Of a stretch of 64,000 nucleotides of DNA, positions 1-47,306 are shown piece by piece. A program made the position numbers and the translations under genes. Position 1 is the first letter of the stretch; each line of letters opens with the position of its first letter. The DNA is from an uncultured Spirochaetota bacterium (GTDB lineage Bacteria; Spirochaetota; Brevinematia; Brevinematales; JAOACQ01), in NCBI GenBank assembly GCA_963783575.1, contig CAWAOD010000010.1:160001-224000 (forward strand), read 5' to 3'. The notes under the pieces are model-generated. The model had not been told where the DNA came from. It ran no database searches and was given only the letters and a program-made list of their open reading frames with translations.

Positions 1-2167
1 TAGCCGCCTGATAAACCCATGAGGCGGTTCCAGAAAGCCAGCTATTCCTTGCCAGACCGAATTGCGGATGTTCGTCACCAAGAATATTCTGCGGATAGCA
101 ATACGGCTCACATTCATATTCATCAAGCTTTTTGTTTTTCGTTGCAGGGTTTATCTGAGAATAATATTGATAAGCCCTGTCGCCATTTCCGGCAATTGTT
201 TCAGCAATCATCACCCATGGATTTGTATGTAAAAATATACCGCCGTTTTCTTTAGCTCCCGGCGGGTAAGTAGAAATACCGCCTTTTAACGAATCATAAC
301 CGTTAAAACCAGGGTAGCTTAATTTAAGACCATTTTTGGTATTGAGCAGCTTATTGACTGAATTTAATGCTTTTTTTGCTCTATCTGCATTTGCAAAACC
401 TGAAATAACGGCCCATGATTGAGAATTTATATAAATTTTACCATATTGATTAATTTTGGAACCTAAAGGACTGCCGTCAAAATCAAAATACCTGGTGTAC
501 CATTCGCCATCCCAAGCATTTTTATTAACAATTTCTTTCATTTCTTCATAATATGAAATATAAAGTTTTTTTGAATCCGAATCTCCCAAATATTCCATTA
601 ATTCAATTATTTCAATAAGGGCTTTCCCGTATAAATCCGCTGTAAAAACTGATTCAGCGCCTGTTTTTAAATTTACAGTATCATTCCAGTCGGCAAAACC
701 TGCATGAGGAAGACCATGCATACCGACATCATTCTTTGTAAAATCAATGGCCCTCATTAAATGATCCAGGGCGGTTCCCGATTCAATAGGTTTATCATTT
801 TTATCTTTTTCATAATAGGGTATGACTTCTTTTAGAAAATCTAAGTTACCGGTTTCCTTAAGATAAGAACACACTGCCAGAACAATCCAGAGATGATCAT
901 CACTGTAATATTTAGGCCTGTCTGCATATTCTTTTGAATCTCCGACAGTTCCAACCATTGTTAAAGGATTGAATTGATGCATCGCCGAACCATTTTTCCG
1001 TTGTACATGAAGAAGCTTCCGTATTAAATCCAATCCTTCTTCCGGAACGTTACCCATTATTCCCATTACATCCTGAGAACTGTCTCTAAAGCCCATTCCA
1101 CGATCGCCACCGAAACCAAGCTGATATAGCGATAAATATCTGGACCAATTTTTTGTTGTGTAGCATTGCCTTGGATTATGAATATTAAGCATCGTGTTCA
1201 TATCAGGATCAGGTGTCTCAACCCGCATCATTGAAAGATAATCTTCCCAGAATAATTTTAAATTTCTAAAAGCATCGTCAACTACATTTTCATTTCTATA
1301 TTTATTAATTCCATCAATAGCCTTATTAATATTTTCTTCCTGCCCGAGCTGAGTAATTAAACGAATAGATTCACCGGGTTTGATTTTTCCGAAATGGTGA
1401 AGAATAGCTCCGATATTATCCCCACGGTTTGCTTCATAATTATCCAACTCGATATTATTTAAAGCTACCGGATTAGCCCAGGATCCGTATTCATTATTGC
1501 CTAAAAAACGTTTTCTATCGGATTCAAATGAGGAGACCGGATGATTGCTGGTAAAATAATTAATTTTAGTATCTCGATTCATAAACGCATATTGTATTAA
1601 TATTTTTTTTCCATCTTTCTCCGGATAAATCCGGCTCTGCATGGTTTGCGGTACCCAATCTGCATTAGTAAGCTGTTTTAAAGCATCAAAATGGGTATAT
1701 TCAATAACCGGTATTAAATCTAAATCAATAGTTTTACCTGATTTATTGGTTATTTTAATATCACGAATCATTCTTGATTCATTCATTGGAATAAAAACAG
1801 TTATATCAGAAAGTATCTCATTAAATTCCGTTATATATCTTGAATATCCCAAGCCCACATGGCATTCATATTTTTCATATTTATTTAAAGTCGGAACAAA
1901 ATACGGCGAAAAGAATTTATAATCTTCCGATTCTTCTTTATACCTTATGTACATTGTCTCACCTTTAAAATCGGAAGCCGGAAGCTGAGCGAAATACTTT
2001 ACGATTCTGTTTAAAGAAGGGTCTTTTTTACATATTAATGAGCCGCCGGTATTATCAATAAATCCGCCAAACGAAAGCTGGCCGATATAATTAATCCATT
2101 TTACCGGTGTCATAGGCGTGGTTATTATATATTCTTTATTCAAATCATTAAAATAGCCATAATCCAT
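1..2167 (-). CDS. GH94 glycoside phosphorylase (cellobiose/cellodextrin/chitobiose phosphorylase-like), 3' end outside window
   Basis: Not in ORF track because it has no stop in the window. Manual translation from ATG 2167 gives MDYGYFNDLNKEYIITTPMTPVKWINYIG..., later GMGFRDSSQD, YYSDDHLW and GFADWNDTVNL, which are GH94 hallmarks. It follows a sugar ABC operon. Confidence 0.88.
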   Translation of the reverse strand, partial: MDYGYFNDLNKEYIITTPMTPVKWINYIGQLSFGGFIDNTGGSLICKKDPSLNRIVKYFAQLPASDFKGETMYIRYKEESEDYKFFSPYFVPTLNKYEKYECHVGLGYSRYITEFNEILSDITVFIPMNESRMIRDIKITNKSGKTIDLDLIPVIEYTHFDALKQLTNADWVPQTMQSRIYPEKDGKKILIQYAFMNRDTKINYFTSNHPVSSFESDRKRFLGNNEYGSWANPVALNNIELDNYEANRGDNIGAILHHFGKIKPGESIRLITQLGQEENINKAIDGINKYRNENVVDDAFRNLKLFWEDYLSMMRVETPDPDMNTMLNIHNPRQCYTTKNWSRYLSLYQLGFGGDRGMGFRDSSQDVMGIMGNVPEEGLDLIRKLLHVQRKNGSAMHQFNPLTMVGTVGDSKEYADRPKYYSDDHLWIVLAVCSYLKETGNLDFLKEVIPYYEKDKNDKPIESGTALDHLMRAIDFTKNDVGMHGLPHAGFADWNDTVNLKTGAESVFTADLYGKALIEIIELMEYLGDSDSKKLYISYYEEMKEIVNKNAWDGEWYTRYFDFDGSPLGSKINQYGKIYINSQSWAVISGFANADRAKKALNSVNKLLNTKNGLKLSYPGFNGYDSLKGGISTYPPGAKENGGIFLHTNPWVMIAETIAGNGDRAYQYYSQINPATKNKKLDEYECEPYCYPQNILGDEHPQFGLARNSWLSGTASWVYQAA

Positions 2168-2223
2168 AAACAAGCCCTTCAATCAAATAACAGCAGACAT
2201 ATCATATTAAATTAATACCGGAA

Positions 2224-3129
2224 TTATCCTCTAATACCACCGGACAACCCTTCAATAAACTGTCTCTGGAATATTAAGAAGAATATTATAGGGATCACGG
2301 CTGAAATGAAGATTGTAAAGATCATGACATCATAAGGCTTTGCCATATTAACGCTATCCATAAATTGAAGCATCATCGGCATAGTAAACTTTGTGGGTGT
2401 TCTTAATATGATAAGAGGCATTAAAAAGTCATTCCATGTCGCTCTGAACTGGTAAATCGCCATAGCGGCAAGTACAGGCCTTCCAAGCGGTATGGTAATC
2501 TGCCACCATATTTGAAAATTATTGGCTCCGTCTATCCTTGCCGCTTCAATGTAAGATAATGGAATTTTTATAAAATATTGCCTGAGCAGAAACACCGCAG
2601 TTGCCGAAGCCCCGGCTGGAATAATCAGTCCAAGGAGGTTGTCTGTTATATTTATAATTCGAAGAATGCGATAAAAAGGCACAATCATGGTTACCGTTGG
2701 CAGCATCATTGTAGCAAGGATTAATACGAATATAATATTTTTCCCGGGAAAATTCATATAAGAAAAAGCATATGCGCACAGCGAACATACGATTAAAACA
2801 ACTGCTATCGCCGAGATTGTCACAAGCACTGAATTAAAAAATGCCCGGCCGATTTGCCATGTAACTCCGAATTGTGTAGTACCAACACCGAAAGATTTCA
2901 AAAGCGAACTTAAAGTATAGCCTTTTATTGATTTCATAATCGGCTGCGATAGAAAAACCGGAGGAACCCTGAATATATCAATTGCGGGTCTAAAAGCGGA
3001 ATCTGTAAGCCATATCATGGGATAGAAGTAAATCACAATAGCTATGACAAGCAAAAGCACTAATCCTAAAAAACTAAAAAACCTGAACGGTTTTCTATGT
3101 ATTATTACTTTTATTTTATTTGATGCCAT
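2224..3129 (-). CDS. Carbohydrate ABC transporter permease (MalG-like)
   Basis: EAA loop (IEAARIDGAN), multiple TM segments, WNDF motif. Confidence 0.92.
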   Translation of the reverse strand: MASNKIKVIIHRKPFRFFSFLGLVLLLVIAIVIYFYPMIWLTDSAFRPAIDIFRVPPVFLSQPIMKSIKGYTLSSLLKSFGVGTTQFGVTWQIGRAFFNSVLVTISAIAVVLIVCSLCAYAFSYMNFPGKNIIFVLILATMMLPTVTMIVPFYRILRIINITDNLLGLIIPAGASATAVFLLRQYFIKIPLSYIEAARIDGANNFQIWWQITIPLGRPVLAAMAIYQFRATWNDFLMPLIILRTPTKFTMPMMLQFMDSVNMAKPYDVMIFTIFISAVIPIIFFLIFQRQFIEGLSGGIRG

Positions 3130-3187
3130 TTTATTTATCCTCCTAAATTAATTAAAATATCGTATTACTAAAATTGTTTTATAATAG

Positions 3188-4120
3188 CTATTCTTCACCT
3201 GAATTACCCAGGCCAAGGAAGCGAAGTTGCAGCAAACTTACTGCCAGAATGATAAAAAACGTTATCCATCCTATTGATGTTGCATATCCAAGCCGCAAAT
3301 TCTGATAAAAACCCTGGTCCAATATATGACCTACTAATGTTCTAGCAATACCTCCAGGTCCATATGTGTTATTTGGAAACAGCATAAATACAATATCAAA
3401 GACCTGAAGTCCTCCAATGGCTGAAGTAACCATAACAAAAGTAAAAGCCGGACGCATTAAAGGCATTACAATTTGAAACAAAACCCTTGGAGCAGAAGCT
3501 CCGTCAATTTTTGCAACTTCAAATAAACTATTATCGATCGATTGGAGGCTGGCAAGAAAATATACCATATGATAGCCCATCCACTGCCAGAATAATACAA
3601 TAAGTATGAGTGGAAACGTATAAGATGAATTATTGATCCAATCAATCTTATTGGGTAAACCAACAAGCCCACAAATCCAATTAATAATACCGGTATCTTT
3701 ATTGAATAACATTCTGAAAAGAAGAGCTAATCCAATACTGCTCATTAAAACCGGAAAGAAAAATGACGCTCTTAAAAAACCCTGCATTTTTTTTGGAACA
3801 TTATTAAGAATATAAGCAAGAACAAACGCAACCGGAACCTGAGTAATAAGACTTCCAAACGCTATAATTAAAGTAGATATTACAGCATGAGAAAAGTTAT
3901 GCTGTTCGTCTTTAAAAATTTCTACATAATTAGCAAATCCAATAAAATCACCGGGGTTAATTCCCTGCATATCGGTGAAACTCATTTTAGCACCCCAGAT
4001 AAATAGAAGAATATTAAAAGTAAACAATAAAACTATAAACGGGGCTATAAACAAAAACGCCGTATAATTACTTTTGGCTTTATTAAATTTTATGGGCTTT
4101 TCTTTGGCTTGTTCTTTCAT
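3188..4120 (-). CDS. Carbohydrate ABC transporter permease (MalF-like)
   Basis: EAA loop (FEVAKIDGAS), TM segments. Confidence 0.92.
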   Translation of the reverse strand: MKEQAKEKPIKFNKAKSNYTAFLFIAPFIVLLFTFNILLFIWGAKMSFTDMQGINPGDFIGFANYVEIFKDEQHNFSHAVISTLIIAFGSLITQVPVAFVLAYILNNVPKKMQGFLRASFFFPVLMSSIGLALLFRMLFNKDTGIINWICGLVGLPNKIDWINNSSYTFPLILIVLFWQWMGYHMVYFLASLQSIDNSLFEVAKIDGASAPRVLFQIVMPLMRPAFTFVMVTSAIGGLQVFDIVFMLFPNNTYGPGGIARTLVGHILDQGFYQNLRLGYATSIGWITFFIILAVSLLQLRFLGLGNSGEE

Positions 4121-40848: not shown

Positions 40849-41131
40849 TTACTTTTTCTTTGGCGCCAAAGAAAAAGTAATCAAAAAGAAAGCGCCCTCC
40901 GCAGTTTCCATAGCGTAGACATCTTTTGTTTAAAGTTGCATTATCCAATTTAATTTTCAATTCCTTTTTTCTTAAATAGCGGCTCATTAAAACATCCTGT
41001 TTTGATTCACCGCTGACGCGCGTCCTGCGCTTTCCATCTTTACAATTCTATATAATAAAAGCAGATAATGCGCTTTTCAACATAGCAAGATTGATTCCTT
41101 TATCTTAAGATCACCGGGAAACTGCTGAGGG
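40849..41131. repeat. Non-coding composite palindromic element (MITE/REP-like)
   Basis: 32-bp perfect palindrome 40849-40880, a 15-bp IR pair 40895-40909 / 41117-41131 (14/15) and nested stems. Confidence 0.7.
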
Positions 41132-41250
41132 AAATGAATGATTTTAAGATTTATTTAAGGATAATTTTTTAGAAGTTCAGTTAAAGAAAAACTGTTTTTA
41201 TACTAATATTTCAACCTAAATAACTCAATCGGAAATGGCGCTAATGTACA

Positions 41251-41279
41251 TTGACAGATTAATTTATTTTTGCTAAGAT
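41251..41279 (+). promoter_or_regulatory. sigma70 promoter for the island ORF
   Basis: TTGACA-17 nt-TAAGAT. Confidence 0.55.
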
Positions 41280-41365
41280 GATCTATAGTTTAAAATAATA
41301 TTCTTAGTTAAATTTGTAAATCATAAATTAAAAAACATAATATTAATCATTGAGGATAAAATTCT

Positions 41366-42133
41366 ATGGAGAAACAAAATTTTTCAAAATTATCAGATGC
41401 ATTAACATATATCAATCTTAGAAAAGATAATATTTATATCGAAGGAGATGGTCCTGATTTATTATCTTATCATTCTATAGATCCGGATCCCAAACCCTTT
41501 ATAATCCAGGCAAGAAAAGATTTGATTAATGCTAATAATAGTGAATATTTTAATTCAATTCTTAATTCCAGGAGGGCTGTCCGCGCTCAAGTAGATCGAA
41601 TATTGAATAGTTTGGGTTTTGAAGCCAAAAAAATGAATATTAAGAAAAAAATACAATTACTAAGACAATTGGGTTTGCCCTCTCCGAATATTTTAAAACG
41701 TATTGATGAACCAAGGAATAATCTTGAACATAATTATGTTATTCCAAAAAAAGAAGATGTTGAGGACGCACTGGATATTGCGGAATTGTTTCTTGAAGCA
41801 ACAAGCAGAGGATTAAATCCAATTGAAACTAGAATATATATAAAAGTAAAAGATGATAAAAAGAAAACAAAAATTAAAAAGAGGATGCTTATGGAATATG
41901 AACTTGGAGAAAAGTTTATTGATATTGATGTGGATCAGATTTATAAACTTTTTTCCATAAAAGATTACTGGAAACATGCTAAAGATCATATTTGTTTTTT
42001 TAAATCAAAAATATATAGTTCTGATAATTTATATATACCTATACTGAGATTAATGATTGTATTTGATAAAGGAGATAATGACTTAGAAAATACTGTAGTT
42101 AAAGAATTAATTGATAAGATATATCAAGATTAA
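41366..42133 (+). CDS. Hypothetical protein with HEPN-like RxxxxH motif
   Basis: Helical pattern NSRRAVRAQVDRIL...PRNNLEHNY...EDALDIAELF. GAGG RBS. Confidence 0.6.
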   Translation: MEKQNFSKLSDALTYINLRKDNIYIEGDGPDLLSYHSIDPDPKPFIIQARKDLINANNSEYFNSILNSRRAVRAQVDRILNSLGFEAKKMNIKKKIQLLRQLGLPSPNILKRIDEPRNNLEHNYVIPKKEDVEDALDIAELFLEATSRGLNPIETRIYIKVKDDKKKTKIKKRMLMEYELGEKFIDIDVDQIYKLFSIKDYWKHAKDHICFFKSKIYSSDNLYIPILRLMIVFDKGDNDLENTVVKELIDKIYQD

Positions 42134-42230
42134 TCTTATATTTCACTTGAATCCGATTTTATGATACAATAAATTAAGAATTTTCATCCAACGTACATTT
42201 AATAAATCTCTGGAAATTGGGAGTACCGGT

Positions 42231-44970
42231 ATGAACGATATGGAAATAATCAGGGAGATTGAGAAAGAATTGAAGATTAAACTCAATTTAGTTGATAAAC
42301 TGTATATTAATAGCAAATGCTATACTTTAGACCAATATGAACGGGTAAAAGGAATAAGTCTGGTTGATTTAATAATAAATGATTTGCACAAAATTTCAGA
42401 GTTTCTAATCAGCTTAAATAATCTTAATGAATTATTTTTGATTATTAATCGAATCAATGATATAAATGCACTTCAAGGTTTGATCAGTCTAACAAAATTA
42501 GATTTAAGCGGTAATCTAATCAGCGATATTAAAGCGCTTCAAGGTTTGACTAGCCTAGCAGAATTATATTTAATTGAAAATCGAATCAGCAATATCAATG
42601 TACTTCAAGGTTTGACAAACCTGACAAAATTAGATTTAAACATCAATCAAATCAGCGACATCAATGCACTTCAAGGTTTAACTAGACTGACAAAATTAAA
42701 TTTGAGCAACAATCGAATCAGTGACATCAGTGCTCTTCAAGGTTTGACCAACCTGACAAAATTAAATTTAAACAACAATCAAATCTTTGACATCAGTGCT
42801 CTTCAAGGTTTGACCAACCTTACAGAATTAGATTTAAGCGGCAATCAAATCTTTGATATTTGTGAACTAAAAGGTTTGACCAACCTTAGAATATTAGATT
42901 TATGTGAAAATAAACTTAAAATTCTACCTGAATGGATTATTAAGTTCGATATGGTTAATATAATTGAAGGAACATATTATACTGATGGAATTAACTTATT
43001 TGGCAATCCCCTCGAAAGCCCACCACTGGAAATCGTGAAACAGGGGAAAGAAGCGGTAAAGAACTATTTCGAACAATTGAAACTTCAGGGTGAAGACCTG
43101 ATTTACGAAGCCAAGCTGATGATCGTGGGAGAACCGGGTGTTGGAAAAACATGCCTTTCCCGCATGCTTTTTGACCGCGGCTACGATATTCGCGATCCCG
43201 GATTAAAGTCGACAACCGGCATCAAAGTCCGTTCGGGCTGGGAATTCACCGTTAATGACAAAATTAATTTCAGCGCCCATGTCCTCCATCAATTTTTTCT
43301 GACTTCGGACTGTCTCTATGTCCTTATGGCTGAAAAGAGGAAAGAGCTGGCCAATTTTGACTACTGGCTCAATATCCTCCACATCCTCGGGAAAGACAGC
43401 CCTATCATCATTCTTTTTAATGAAATTGACCGGGACAATGTAGCTACTTTCATTTATGATGAGAAGAAATACAAATATCTTTTCCCGGATATGAACATTA
43501 CCAGGCTTGACATCAACCTTGCGGAAATCAGGGACGGCAGGTTCGACACACTGATTAATAACATCCGCGGATTTTTGAAAAACCTTCCTCATGTCGGTCA
43601 GACCGTGCCTGCACGCTGGAAAGACATCAGATTGGAACTTGAGAAAAGAAAAGGCGAGAAACGCATATCGGTCGAAGAATATTATGGAATCTGTAAAAAG
43701 TTCCAGATTAACCGAAGGGAAGACCAGGAATTGATCCTGAACTATTTCCACCTTCTTGGAATTGCTCTTTACTTTAAGGACGATCCTCAGATTAACGACA
43801 CCCTCTTTCTTGACCCGAACTGGACAGTAAATGCAGTTTATTCCATTCTTTCGGATAAAACGATAGAGCCTTATGACGGCCGTGTTGAATACGCTTTCAT
43901 TAAGAAAATATGGGACAAGAATGGCTATACTGCCGGAGAACAGGCGAAAATCCTCTCGTTGATGCTTAAAGACGCCTTTGAACTCTGCTATGTCTGTCCT
44001 ACGGATAAAAGATTTTATATCGTGCCTTCACTTCTGCCGAAGATTAAGCCACAAAATTTAATATGGAATGAAACTGGCAATCTAACTTTCCGCTTCCAAT
44101 ACCCTTTCATGCCCGAAAGGTATTGTTAGTCGCCTTATTGTACGACTTAACGAATATATAGAAAACAACATCGTTTGGAATGAAGGGGTCATCTTTCAAA
44201 AAGAAGGCGCTAAAGCCCTTGTCGTTGAAAAAGCCACTACAAGGGAGGGGCTCAAGATAATCGAAATAAAACTTTCAGGCGAGCCCGAAAATCGTAAAAC
44301 ACTATTGACCCTGATCCGGGAAGAGGTAAAAAAGATTCAGGAAAGCTCTTTTCCAAATTTGCCATATTATGAAATGGTCCCATGCAATTGCGAAAAATGC
44401 AGTATAAATGAGGAACCGGAATTTTTCAGATATAATTTACTCATGGATTGCTTGAGTACGGGCGACTTTGAAATACAATGCCATAGAAGCCGGAAGATGG
44501 TAAAGGTGATAGAATTGATAGATGCAGTCTTTACATATAATGAAAAAGCACAAGTAATAGGTGCGGGAAAATTCAGCGATAAAACTGAATTTCATTTTCA
44601 TACTGATGGAGGTGATTTAAATATGGGAGATAGCTATAATGTAACTCAAGGTATAGCCGGGAAAAACGTATCAGTCAATACCGCGAATTTTTATCAGTCT
44701 CAATGGGAAGAAATCCAATCCCGGATCGATATTGAAAAGTTAATCGAAGAATTAAAATTGCTGAAAGAAAATCTTGTCAAACAAGCCAAAACCCCCCAGC
44801 ATTATTCAGCAATCGCAGAAGTAGCAAAAGCCGAAGAAGCCGCGCAAAAGAAAGACGGCCCGAAGGTTCTGGAGTTTTTGAAAAATGCCGGCAAATGGGC
44901 GCTTGATGCGGCGACAAGCATAGGAACAACAATAGCCGCCGATGTTATTAAGAAAAGCATGGGGATTTGA
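42231..44970 (+). CDS. LRR-Roc-COR (Roco) protein, 1-nt frameshift at 44112-44114
   Basis: 22-aa LRRs, GNPLESPP, EAKLMIVGEPGVGKT P-loop, COR segments. Removing one C restores FMPKGIVSRLIVR and joins the 44305 ORF (about 912 aa). Confidence 0.85.
42428..42910 (+). repeat. Intragenic 66-bp tandem repeats encoding LRRs
   Basis: Recurrent CTTCAAGGTTTGAC...AAATTAGATTTAA units with 66-nt period. Confidence 0.85.
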
Positions 44971-45097
44971 TAAAAACTCAATTCGCCAAGCCCAAGTAAC
45001 CCTGGGAACAGGATGTTCCATGAGGACTACTCTGCAACCATTCAGACAGCCGAGCGTCAGCTCGGCAGCGCAGCGACTGCGCAAGGTTACAGCCATG
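44971..45097 (+). repeat. Composite hairpin repeat, units 1-2
   Basis: ATTCGCCAAGCCCAAGTAACCCTGGGAACAGGATGTTCCATG and GCCGAGCGTCAGCTCGGCAGCGCAGCGACTGCGC, with homologs at 45809-45997. Confidence 0.8.
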
Positions 45098-45110
45098 TTT
45101 AAATAATTAT

Positions 45111-45139
45111 TTGACAATATTGTCTATATTTGGTATTAT
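45111..45139 (+). promoter_or_regulatory. TA operon promoter with overlapping palindrome
   Basis: TTGACA-17 nt-TATTAT. Palindrome GACAATATTGTC (45113-45124) overlaps the -35 box. Confidence 0.7.
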
Positions 45140-45172
45140 ATTTAGTCTGGAATTGATTGTTAGGAGTATCTT

Positions 45173-45445
45173 ATGAATATCAAAGAAGACATTCAGCCCA
45201 TATCTTTTGTAAAAGCACATGCCACGGAAATTTTGACTCAAATTAATCAAACACACAGGCCATTATATGTAACTCAAAATGGCAAAGCAAAAGCAGTAAT
45301 TGTTGATCCTGATAGTTTTGATAATATGAAAAAAGCAATATCAATTTTAAAAATAATCACTTTTGGAGAAAAAGAATATAAAGAAGGGAAATATACAAAG
45401 CAGGAAGATGTTTTTGCAGAGATTGAAAGTAAATATAGTTGGTAG
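45173..45445 (+). CDS. Phd/YefM-family antitoxin
   Basis: DIQPISFVKAH...PLYVTQNGKAKAVIVD. Confidence 0.92.
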   Translation: MNIKEDIQPISFVKAHATEILTQINQTHRPLYVTQNGKAKAVIVDPDSFDNMKKAISILKIITFGEKEYKEGKYTKQEDVFAEIESKYSW

Positions 45446-45450
45446 CCTAA

Positions 45451-45777
45451 ATGGAAAATTATTCTGTAATATGGATTGACTCTGCAAAAAAGGATTTACT
45501 GGATATAATTGATTATATTGCCCAGGACAAAATAGACACAGCAAAATCTATTTATCATAAACTTAAGGACAAAGCATCTTCATTATCTAATATGCCATTA
45601 AAAGGTCGAATAGTACCAGAATTGAAAATTTATGGTATTGATATATATAGAGAAATAATTGAAAATCCATGGAGAATAATATATCGTGTTCAAAATGATG
45701 AAATAATTATTTTGGTAGTTATAGATGGAAGAAGAAATATAGAAGATATTATCTTTGAAAAAATACTTGAAAAATAA
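45451..45777 (+). CDS. RelE/ParE-family toxin
   Basis: AKKDLLDIIDYIA, GRIVPEL, WRIIYRV, VIDGRRN. Confidence 0.92.
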   Translation: MENYSVIWIDSAKKDLLDIIDYIAQDKIDTAKSIYHKLKDKASSLSNMPLKGRIVPELKIYGIDIYREIIENPWRIIYRVQNDEIIILVVIDGRRNIEDIIFEKILEK

Positions 45778-45808
45778 AAGGTTACCAAACCACCGGGTTG
45801 AATTCACC

Positions 45809-45997
45809 GGCAAAATTTTATTCGCCAAATCCAAGTAACCTTGGGAGCACGGACGCTCCATGGGAGCTTTACTCTAATAATCATATAGTGGCGAACATCA
45901 GTTCGCCAAGCGACACGATGTAGCAAGGATGCGCCATGATAATTTCTCTTTAATCACAAAGGCCGCCGAACTGCGTTCGGCAGCGCAACGACTGCGC
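45809..45997 (+). repeat. Composite hairpin repeat, units 3-5
   Basis: ATTCGCCAAATCCAAGTAACCTTGGGAGCACGGACGCTCCATG, GGCGAACATCAGTTCGCC...GCAAGGATGCGCCATG, GCCGAACTGCGTTCGGCAGCGCAACGACTGCGC. Confidence 0.8.
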
Positions 45998-47306
45998 CTA
46001 GCGTTGTTTCACGGAAATGAATGGCTTTTCATCTTCACCGGTATAAATCTGGCGAGGCCGCATTATCTTCTGTTCGGGATCGGCTTTCATTTCAAGCCAG
46101 TGGGCTATCCATCCGGGAAGCCTGCCTATAGCGAACATTACTGTGAACATGTTTGTCGGGATTCCCATGGCCCGGTATGCTATCCCGGTATAATAATCCA
46201 CGTTGGGATATAGGTTTTTATCCTGAAAATACGAATCCGCAAGGGCTTTTTCCTCAAGTTCCATTGCTATTTCAAGCAGAGGGTCGTTTTTCATTCCCAG
46301 GTAATCCAGAAACTGACGGCAGGTTTGTTTGGCGATTTTTGCCCTCGGGTCGTAGGATTTATAAACCCTGTGCCCGAAACCCATCAATCTCATTTTGGAA
46401 TCTTTGCGCTTAGCCATTTCGATCACATCATTCACCTTCATTCCACCTCTGTAAATTCCTTCAAGCATCTCTATAACGGCCTGGTTCGCCCCGCCATGCA
46501 GACAGGCCCCAGAGCGCGCATATGCCGGCGGCTATCGAGGCATATAGATTGGCGCCTGAACTTCCGACTGTCCTGACTACGGTAGTGGAACAGTTCTGCT
46601 CATGATCGGCATGAAGAATAAGAAAGATGTTAAGCACGCGTTCCACAACCTGGTCAATCCTGTAGTTATTTACCGGCGAAGAGAACATCATATTGAGAAA
46701 ATTCTCGCAATACCGGTATTTATAACTCGGGTAAATAAAAGGTTCGCCGATCGATTTTTTGTAAGAAAAAGCGGCTATTGTCCTCATTTTTGAAAGCAGG
46801 CGGGTAACCGTTTTATCTATTGATTCTTCAACGGGCTCTTTCTCAAGTTCGGGATAAAAAGATGAAAGCGAAACGACCATAGCTGAAAGAACTGCCATAG
46901 GGTGGGAATTTTCAGGAAAGTTGATGAAAAAACGCTGCATATCTTCATGAATCAGCGAATGCTCGTTCATCAGATCGGAAAATTTCTTCCTTTCAGTCAT
47001 GTTGGGCAGTTTCCCGAATATCAATAAATAAGCGACTTCAAGAAACATACAATTTTCCGCAAGCTCGTCGATTTTATAACCCCTGTGAAGCAGAATTCCC
47101 TTTTCACCGTCGACAAATGTAATATCGCTTGATGTGATACCTGTATTCGCGAGGCCCGGATCATAAGTGACATAACCTGTTTCTTTTCTTAAAACGGTTA
47201 TATCTATTGCCTTCTCATATTTTGAACCTTCATAAAGAGGTAATTTTACCTTTTGCCCGTCAATTTTCAATTCAGCATTCCCTTTTAACGGCATTTTATC
47301 CTTCAT
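45998..47306 (-). CDS. gltA: Citrate synthase, 1-nt frameshift near 46503
   Basis: [25 protein letters not shown]. Removing one base restores [13 protein letters not shown] and joins the two ORFs. Confidence 0.93.

Follow-up and report, generated by a model that had tools for sequence, protein, structure and literature searches.

The window analyzed here is a 64,000-nucleotide (nt) stretch from the genome of an uncultured Spirochaetota bacterium (contig CAWAOD010000010.1, positions 160,001 to 224,000, forward strand), and all coordinates refer to it. Between 42 and 45 kb it carries a Roco gene, the 3′ end of which encodes an additional tail module with start signals of its own. Bacterial Roco proteins are built as LRR–Roc–COR, the Chlorobium tepidum protein being an example. 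The window gene shares their customary domain order (LRR, Roc, COR-A, COR-B), and intact relatives with 58% identity exist. Unlike them, it is frameshifted, lacks the DxxG motif and bears the extra module, which is found in only some of the relatives. Pfam detected LRR_4 (E = 1.2e-35), Roc (1.5e-10, residues 295–400) and COR-A (3.4e-35, residues 460–602) in the first of its two pieces, and COR-B (9.7e-31, residues 10–146) in the second. The Roc GTPase domain includes a P-loop (GEPGVGKT, 43128–43151). Sequence comparison indicates that the 3′ end of this gene contains an internal start codon with a ribosome-binding site, both conserved, from which the last 115 codons are likely translated as a separate protein, beside any full-length product.

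Inspection of the letters confirmed that a Shine–Dalgarno (SD) sequence, GGAGGTGA (44608–44615), lies 7 nt ahead of an in-frame ATG at 44623, as the earlier note had described, and translation from this codon returned the 115-amino-acid (aa) product quoted there. Extended through the T at 44616, the SD becomes the 9-mer GGAGGTGAT. The spacer is TTTAAAT, counting 7 nt from the 8-mer and 6 nt from the 9-mer. The ATG shares the frame of the open reading frame (ORF) closing with TGA at 44968–44970, and thus a start codon with an SD at working distance stands within a longer ORF. Both 16S genes of the genome (4.9 Mb, 37% G+C, 18 contigs) terminate in ...GGATCACCTCCTTA; therefore, the window SD pairs perfectly over nine bases. 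The genome uses SD sequences: a match of at least 5 nt precedes the first ATG in 1,329 of 3,131 long ORFs (42%) vs 1,939 of the 25,534 internal in-frame ATGs (7.6%). For matches of at least 8 nt, the counts are 64/3,131 and 10/25,534, respectively. The full 9-mer match occurs at two of the 25,534 internal in-frame ATGs genome-wide, and the window site is among the two. In a 64-kb window with a few hundred such ATGs, a 9-mer at one of them would be uncommon by chance, though not impossible, and it is the comparative evidence that raises this site above chance. An Rfam scan of 41000–46500 returned no family. A promoter scan found 27 sites vs 21.5 +/- 4.9 in shuffles, and a 9-of-12 match at 44452–44479 gave no evidence of a tail promoter.

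Table 1. Features of the Roco gene and its tail module, in window coordinates.
Feature	Position	Strand	Evidence
Roco piece A: LRRs, Roc and COR-A, closed by a premature TAG	42231..44129	+	Pfam and ORF list
In-frame loss of ~11 residues including the Roc DxxG (switch II)	about 43281..43286	+	FSAHV-LHQFF vs ..AHIWDFGGQQIQYMLHQFF.. in relatives
Roco piece B: COR-B, then tail module	44086..44970 (stop-to-stop)	+	Pfam and ORF list
Frameshift site	about 44113..44118	+	ATGCCCGAAAGG, one base more than ..YPFMPKGIVSRL.. of intact relatives
SD GGAGGTGAT	44608..44616	+	9-base complement of the 16S 3′ tail; coding for peptide ..DGGDL..
Internal in-frame ATG, module codon 1	44623..44625	+	Homologous codon start-capable in 44/50 distinct loci
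Tail module ORF, 115 aa + TGA	44623..44970	+	Translation; 1,916 representative relatives at E<=0.001
Conserved G/N/Q/A-rich module head MGDSYNVTQGIAGKNVSVNTANFYQSQW	44623..44706	+	Alignments; 28 aa
Helical bundle, five predicted helices	44707..44967	+	AlphaFold2 mean pLDDT 82 in the first 10-residue block, 91–98 after

A conserved head of 28 aa and a helical bundle make up the tail, which is an unnamed, portable module found at the C-termini of proteins. A phmmer search with window 44536–44967 as the query (internal Met = residue 30) against 1.84 billion representatives of clusters at 50% identity gave 1,916 matches at E<=0.001, of which 818 reached E<=1e-10. Among the matches listed, the alignment starts at about query residue 25–38 and extends almost to the end of the protein. 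The copies are ~40–50% identical to each other, and the consensus of the head reads M-GD-x-Y ... GQAGAVGPNA-A ... F-Q-x-W. The 115-aa tail matched no family in Pfam-A 2025 (E<=0.01), NCBIfam 20.0 or PADLOC 2.0, and the precomputed Pfam lists of the tail-bearing relatives P0152 and P0112 contain Roc, COR or FG-GAP alone. A search for a second tail copy in the window's own genome found none. 

In some genes the module is joined to one of many unrelated sensor or scaffold domains, and in others it stands alone. Pfam analysis of 45 longer representatives revealed nine with pentapeptide repeats, three with Roc/COR, two with SPFH/Band 7, two with AbiTii, and one each with HEAT, a ferredoxin domain and a weak PAS match; the remaining 26 matched no family. 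The 40 fused ORFs from the fetched loci yielded pentapeptide repeats (three), AbiTii (three), AAA (one), a weak RINT1 match (one) and nothing in 32 cases. Short proteins of 115–124 aa open at the homologous Met (P0007, P0146, P0098). Stand-alone calls (P0146, P0126, P0051, P0125) lie on contigs of 29–399 kb, and are therefore not contig-edge fragments. Split forms were found in L012, L034, L036 and L004, where an upstream same-strand ORF stops at or just ahead of the module start; for L012, the NCBI record (P0125) begins the protein at the GTG of the module. 

The distribution is patchy, at roughly 1% of sampled genomes. No copy was found in 400 other genomes from the same phylum as the window, and two further phylum samples had it in 2 of 300 other genomes each. 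Fused genes are carried, for example, by Hoeflea alexandrii DSM 16655 (L008), Paracoccus amoyensis (L025) and Rhizobium pisi DSM 30132 (L031), which are cultivable. A search of viral contigs gave no relative, and a plasmid search gave one match, a Hymenobacter record whose annotation gives a single hypothetical coding sequence. The gene neighborhoods of 18 homologous loci shared no common partner gene, which fits a self-contained gene; some of the neighbors were mobile or defense-like (PIN, Fic, CHAT, HEPN, transposases) and some were housekeeping genes. Copies of the module also cluster. P0002 has two modules in tandem in one protein. Pseudomonas spelaei (L011) has adjacent module genes at 1050–2402 and 2419–3348, the first without a start codon at the homologous position. 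L044 contains two module genes (167–655 and 1837–3243), and in L027 a head-less partial copy (3376–3675) lies directly downstream.

We compared the start site at the nucleotide level. The DNA of homologs came from genomes (42 loci), metagenomes (13 loci) and, for a few further loci, genome searches; the locus search was seeded with a five-sequence alignment. The modules were aligned to a profile in which the window Met occupies column 35. Sixty module hits were obtained, of which seven fell short of this column and three were exact duplicates, leaving 50 distinct loci including the window. The codon at the column is ATG in 37, GTG in six, TTG in one and another codon in six; in L031 and L057, two of the last six, an ATG lies one codon away. 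Valine at the column is encoded by GTG in six of six cases, although GTG makes up 21–35% of the Val codons in those ORFs (product 3.3e-4), and the sole Leu is TTG. Among 120 fused representatives, 95 have M as the aligned residue, 12 have V, three L, one I and nine another residue. The first codon of the module has thus been kept start-capable across phyla.

Pairing with the anti-SD was calculated for bases -20 to -4 in the 35 fused loci outside Bacteroidota. The mean duplex energy at the column was -7.09 kcal/mol. Synonymous recoding with the codon usage of each ORF itself gave a weaker mean of -4.80 kcal/mol (Wilcoxon 1.6e-5), and the other in-frame ATGs of the same ORFs a mean of -2.50 kcal/mol (p 8e-8). 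With the window left out (n = 34), the p-values were 3.1e-5 and 1.6e-7, respectively. At six decoy offsets there was no SD excess over recoding (p 0.32–0.91). The encoded residue may be G, K, E, R or Q at -4 and E, D or G at -3, but the bases read AGGAG, GGGAG or GGAGG. For 39 fused loci, predicted folding of 60 nt of mRNA gave -6.5 kcal/mol around the site and -11.3 kcal/mol at other places of the ORFs concerned (p 4.6e-10). Bacteroidota rely little on SD sequences, and four fused loci from this group, taken as a control, showed no SD-like run (mean +0.5). The module codon is therefore preceded by an SD-like run beyond the demand of the amino acids and by weakly structured mRNA; codons, SD pairing, mRNA structure and decoys all indicate start signals kept in homologs beyond what the protein requires. 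The earlier note had proposed a nucleotide-level check of SD and ATG in homologous tails, and its outcome, with 44 of 50 loci start-capable and an SD excess over synonymous recoding, speaks for the site.

The sensor part of the window gene looks to be in poorer condition, a point missed in the earlier note: the sequence indicates a Roco copy frameshifted near 44113–44118 and devoid of DxxG. Both COR domains follow Roc, but in different frames, separated by the stop codon at 44127–44129. The earlier note had placed the start site inside the Roco gene; SD and ATG do lie 3′ of COR-B, whereas a single intact Roco ORF does not exist. The closest relative, P0152, is 84% identical, and three full-length relatives (P0153, P0155, P0159) are 58% identical. 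All four read ..YPFMPKGIVSRLIVR.. unbroken; therefore, the window's ATGCCCGAAAGG contains one extra base. The same four have (A)HIWDFGGQQIQYMLHQFF where the window has FSAHV-LHQFF, without the switch II DxxG of Roc. The gene call for P0152, on a 131-kb contig, opens mid-Roc (MIWDFGGQ...), exactly at the window's deletion, which suggests that P0152 is also disrupted in its Roc region. The frameshift site falls within a small hairpin, CCTTTC-ATGCCC-GAAAGG (44103–44120). If tRNA-Pro slipped by +1 on CCC-G, exactly the conserved ..FMPKGIVSRL.. would be recovered, with no sign of a programmed site. Among the Roco relatives, P0152, P0155 and P0112 carry the tail module, and P0153 and P0159 bear another tail, a different helical segment (..AFSELEKAA..GKKE..KALRLVSKGAEKVQ..). 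The tail at the C-terminus of these Roco proteins is therefore swappable.

The citrate synthase gene nearby (45998–47306, minus strand) is likewise divided over two frames, with a break near 46470–46500. Positions 1–212 of its Pfam model match in 46464–47306 and positions 226–357 in 46001–46468. By its sequence, this split may reflect either a second pseudogene or assembly indel errors, and because a neighboring housekeeping gene is also split, an assembly error is possible for the Roco frameshift, too. Between the two genes, direct repeats at 44973–45010/45812–45849 (82% identical) and 45062–45082/45977–45997 (95%) bracket a Phd/YefM–ParE toxin–antitoxin pair (45173–45445 and 45451–45777), which resembles a cassette between two copies of a ~130-nt element. 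A 26-nt core of the repeat has four copies in the genome (twice on C10, once each on C11 and C13). The only match for the gene upstream of Roco (41366–42133) was a weak one to DUF4145, which at E 0.006 fell short of the cut-off. Taken as a whole, the ~41.0–46.4 kb region looks like a small inserted island amid housekeeping genes (sugar-nucleotide enzymes, citrate synthase, major facilitator superfamily transporters).

AlphaFold2 modeling of window 44593–44967 (61 sequences; model m2f90efe7e645) gave a mean predicted local distance difference test score (pLDDT) of 83 and a predicted template modeling score (pTM) of 0.68. The predicted helices span residues 30–42, 47–64, 68–85, 89–110 and 113–122, numbered within the modeled segment. 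The first ~28 residues, including MGDSYNVTQGIAGKNVSV, had pLDDT values mostly below 50 and no secondary structure. Foldseek found no match at E<=0.001 in PDB (best 0.29) or BFVD. Ribosomal L9, the best PDB-sequence profile match (E 0.046), was not credible, and death-like or other adaptor folds were dropped, there being no fold match. The nearest ESM Atlas clusters were unnamed hypothetical proteins at 0.91–0.92; TCAD2, at 0.88, is a lead only.

Several observations weigh against internal initiation at the module. Five of the seven hits dropped from the alignment lack any head. In four of the 50 loci, neither the codon at the column nor an adjacent one is start-capable (L010 GGC, L011_1050 TCC, L029 AAT, L044_167 GCT), and in nine of the 120 fused representatives the residue is none of M, V, L and I, which themselves also form a conservative hydrophobic set. 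SD pairing is weak in the fused loci L006, L016, L032, L056 and L067. The weak mRNA structure may stem in part from a lower G+C around the start (0.41 vs 0.47), and the window's own site is no less structured than other places of its ORF (-9.0 vs -8.3). In the Bacteroidota sample, the fused locus L068 (reverse strand, 130–1848) has a strong SD-like GAGGAGGT ahead of its internal ATG; this locus is not part of the SD statistics, and because of it the control is imperfect. The loci are related sequences, and the p-values therefore overstate their independence. As for function, we infer a contact between long and short products only by analogy, and a conflict-system role only from the fusion partners and the patchy distribution.

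In one alternative, the SD-like run and the Met would be by-products of a conserved peptide, G-(E/D)-x-x-M-G-D, serving folding, docking or proteolytic release, with no initiation taking place. The head is indeed strongly conserved as a protein, M, V, L and I are chemically alike, and the four loci without a start codon agree with it. Moreover, the amino acids alone lift SD-likeness above that of the control ATGs (-4.8 vs -2.5); therefore, part of the SD signal could be peptide conservation. Chemistry does not, however, demand GTG for every Val and TTG for the Leu, and what the -4 residues G, K, R, Q and E have in common is codon letters. The pairing exceeds synonymous recoding at the module column only, the mRNA is weakly structured there, and separate genes begin at the identical codon, all of which makes a pure by-product improbable. 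An idle relic is also conceivable: a free-standing module would have been fused repeatedly through stop-codon loss, its old SD and ATG lingering unused. Free-standing and split forms occur, and the partner domains are highly diverse. At ~40–50% identity between modules, though, the fusions cannot all be recent, and unused signals should have drifted to the synonymous expectation, which they have not. Replacements by start-capable GTG or TTG imply that selection continues, and we give this explanation very little credence. Ribosome pausing at the domain boundary induced by the SD was dropped because it leaves the choice of GTG and TTG unexplained.

A different objection concerns the window itself: its Roco gene may be decaying, with nothing functional made in this genome and the start signals inherited from an intact ancestor. 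The frameshift and the Roc deletion point this way, as does P0152, called from mid-Roc and perhaps damaged there as well. The absence of the module from the 400 other genomes of the phylum sample is what a recent, dispensable acquisition would leave. Against decay, the tail ORF is intact and has retained a perfect 9-base SD, and the split in the adjacent citrate synthase gene means that the frameshift may be an assembly error. We hold a wholly dead locus to be possible but on the unlikely side. The mechanism offered in the earlier note, in which the G/N/Q/aromatic head is an amyloid signaling motif and the activated long protein templates a membrane-damaging short one, appears doubtful to us. 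It would suit a head that is conserved, low in complexity, rich in G/N/Q/A, disordered in the predicted monomer and common to long and short forms, and amyloid signaling (Bab/Agp) is described for bacterial defense. The tail nevertheless matches no Pfam amyloid-motif family, nor any other, and no such family occurs among the 45 representatives. The G-phi-Q-phi-G core, given as the common signature of RHIM, PP and BASS3 by Dyrka et al. (2020 preprint), is absent (..VTQGIAGKNV.. in the window, ..GQAGAVGPN.. in the consensus). In Bab and HET-S-type effectors (Ibarlosa et al. 2024 preprint), a helical execution domain forms the N-terminal part and the motif follows it; here the motif sits on the C-terminal side of the sensor, ahead of the helices, instead of at the N-terminus of a sensor and the C-terminus of an effector. 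AlphaFold2 placed no strands in the motif, either in the monomer or in the natural tandem protein P0002; the latter model, with a pTM of 0.41 and disordered heads, carries no information on head-to-head pairing. The proposed RHIM/BASS-type motif was thus not borne out. Nor was the amphipathic, possibly membrane-active C-terminus, as the last helices are predicted to pack within a confident bundle and include Asp residues. These tests are weak, and they leave the amyloid idea unsupported rather than excluded; a conserved head that is predicted to be disordered still needs explaining. In one speculative and rather remote scenario, conflict-type sensors from nearly two thousand clusters would each produce the module both tethered and free, and a tethered copy, once its sensor has fired, would template free copies via the disordered head into a higher-order, cell-killing assembly, a one-gene form of the prion-like signaling of the NLR/HET-S type.

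Internal initiation at the module is, by comparison of the sequences, well supported. Codon choice, excess SD pairing, open mRNA and separate genes beginning at the same codon agree, and for this reason we take ribosomes to start at module codon 1. The suggestion in the earlier note that one gene gives both a sensor and a free tail holds for the start, which appears conserved at the exact module boundary, and falters on the sensor part, which is frameshifted here. Two products would then arise from every fused gene, a long form with sensor and module and a short form consisting of the module. The known genes within genes Rpn_L/Rpn_S and Cas10d/Cas11d suggest that the two may meet via the shared module, and the short form might then cap, that is, restrain, or else extend an assembly nucleated by the long form. 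Judging by the fusion partners (AbiTii, Roc-COR, pentapeptide, SPFH, HEAT, AAA) and the patchy distribution, the module family is likely to belong to a system of the conflict or abortive-infection type. Given how degraded the sensor part appears in this genome, a good start signal may be left to the self-starting tail alone.

Comparable arrangements have been described. Rpn_S is a small C-terminal domain made from an internal in-frame start of a defense-related gene (Zhong et al. 2023, bioRxiv 10.1101/2023.05.02.539157 / PNAS). As in Rpn_L/Rpn_S, the short form here would have the sequence of the long form's tail; Rpn_S binds its long form. In contrast, Rpn_S derives from one nuclease family and is highly variable, whereas the module is single, conserved and attached to many unrelated N-terminal domains, and we claim no counterpart of the toxicity, antitoxin or binding roles of Rpn for a module characterized from its sequence. 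In the Cas10d/Cas11d and Cas8/Cas11 pairs, a helical small subunit arises from an in-frame internal start (McBride et al. 2020, bioRxiv 10.1101/2020.04.18.045682). The internal start of Cas11 is likewise conserved over many systems, with a separate gene in others; the module belongs to another fold family and system, and is seen here as a sequence, not as a complex. Bab/Agp (BASS11), Bell/NLR BASS and HET-S/NWD2 share with it a short, conserved, low-complexity motif beside a small helical domain, present in a large sensor and a small protein. Unlike these amyloid pairs, both module copies would come from one gene rather than two, and the motif order is reversed. NTP (nucleoside triphosphate)-dependent conflict systems combine constant adaptor or effector modules with variable domains (Kaur, Burroughs, Iyer, Aravind 2020, eLife, PMC7159879). 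The likeness lies in pentapeptide, HEAT, Band7/SPFH and Roc-COR partners on one constant module and in the patchy distribution; the difference is that the module matches no named Pfam, NCBIfam or PADLOC family, and an internal start is not part of their description in the text consulted. A full-text literature search by text terms, with supplements outside its scope, returned the Rpn and Cas11 precedents and nothing on a Roco internal start or on the module.

Among known genes, a few families release a C-terminal domain by an internal in-frame start, namely those of Rpn and of the Cas large subunits. Here, the start signal travels with a portable domain of 1,916 clusters, which retains an SD and a start codon at its beginning behind many different N-terminal partners. 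If this is correct, it would define a new domain family, and hundreds of genes now annotated as single would be re-annotated as two-product genes. It would also provide a sequence-only recipe for finding genes within genes: a start-capable codon, SD pairing above the synonymous expectation and weak mRNA structure, all at a domain boundary. Finally, it would offer a handle on signaling by bacterial Roco, AbiTii and pentapeptide-repeat proteins.

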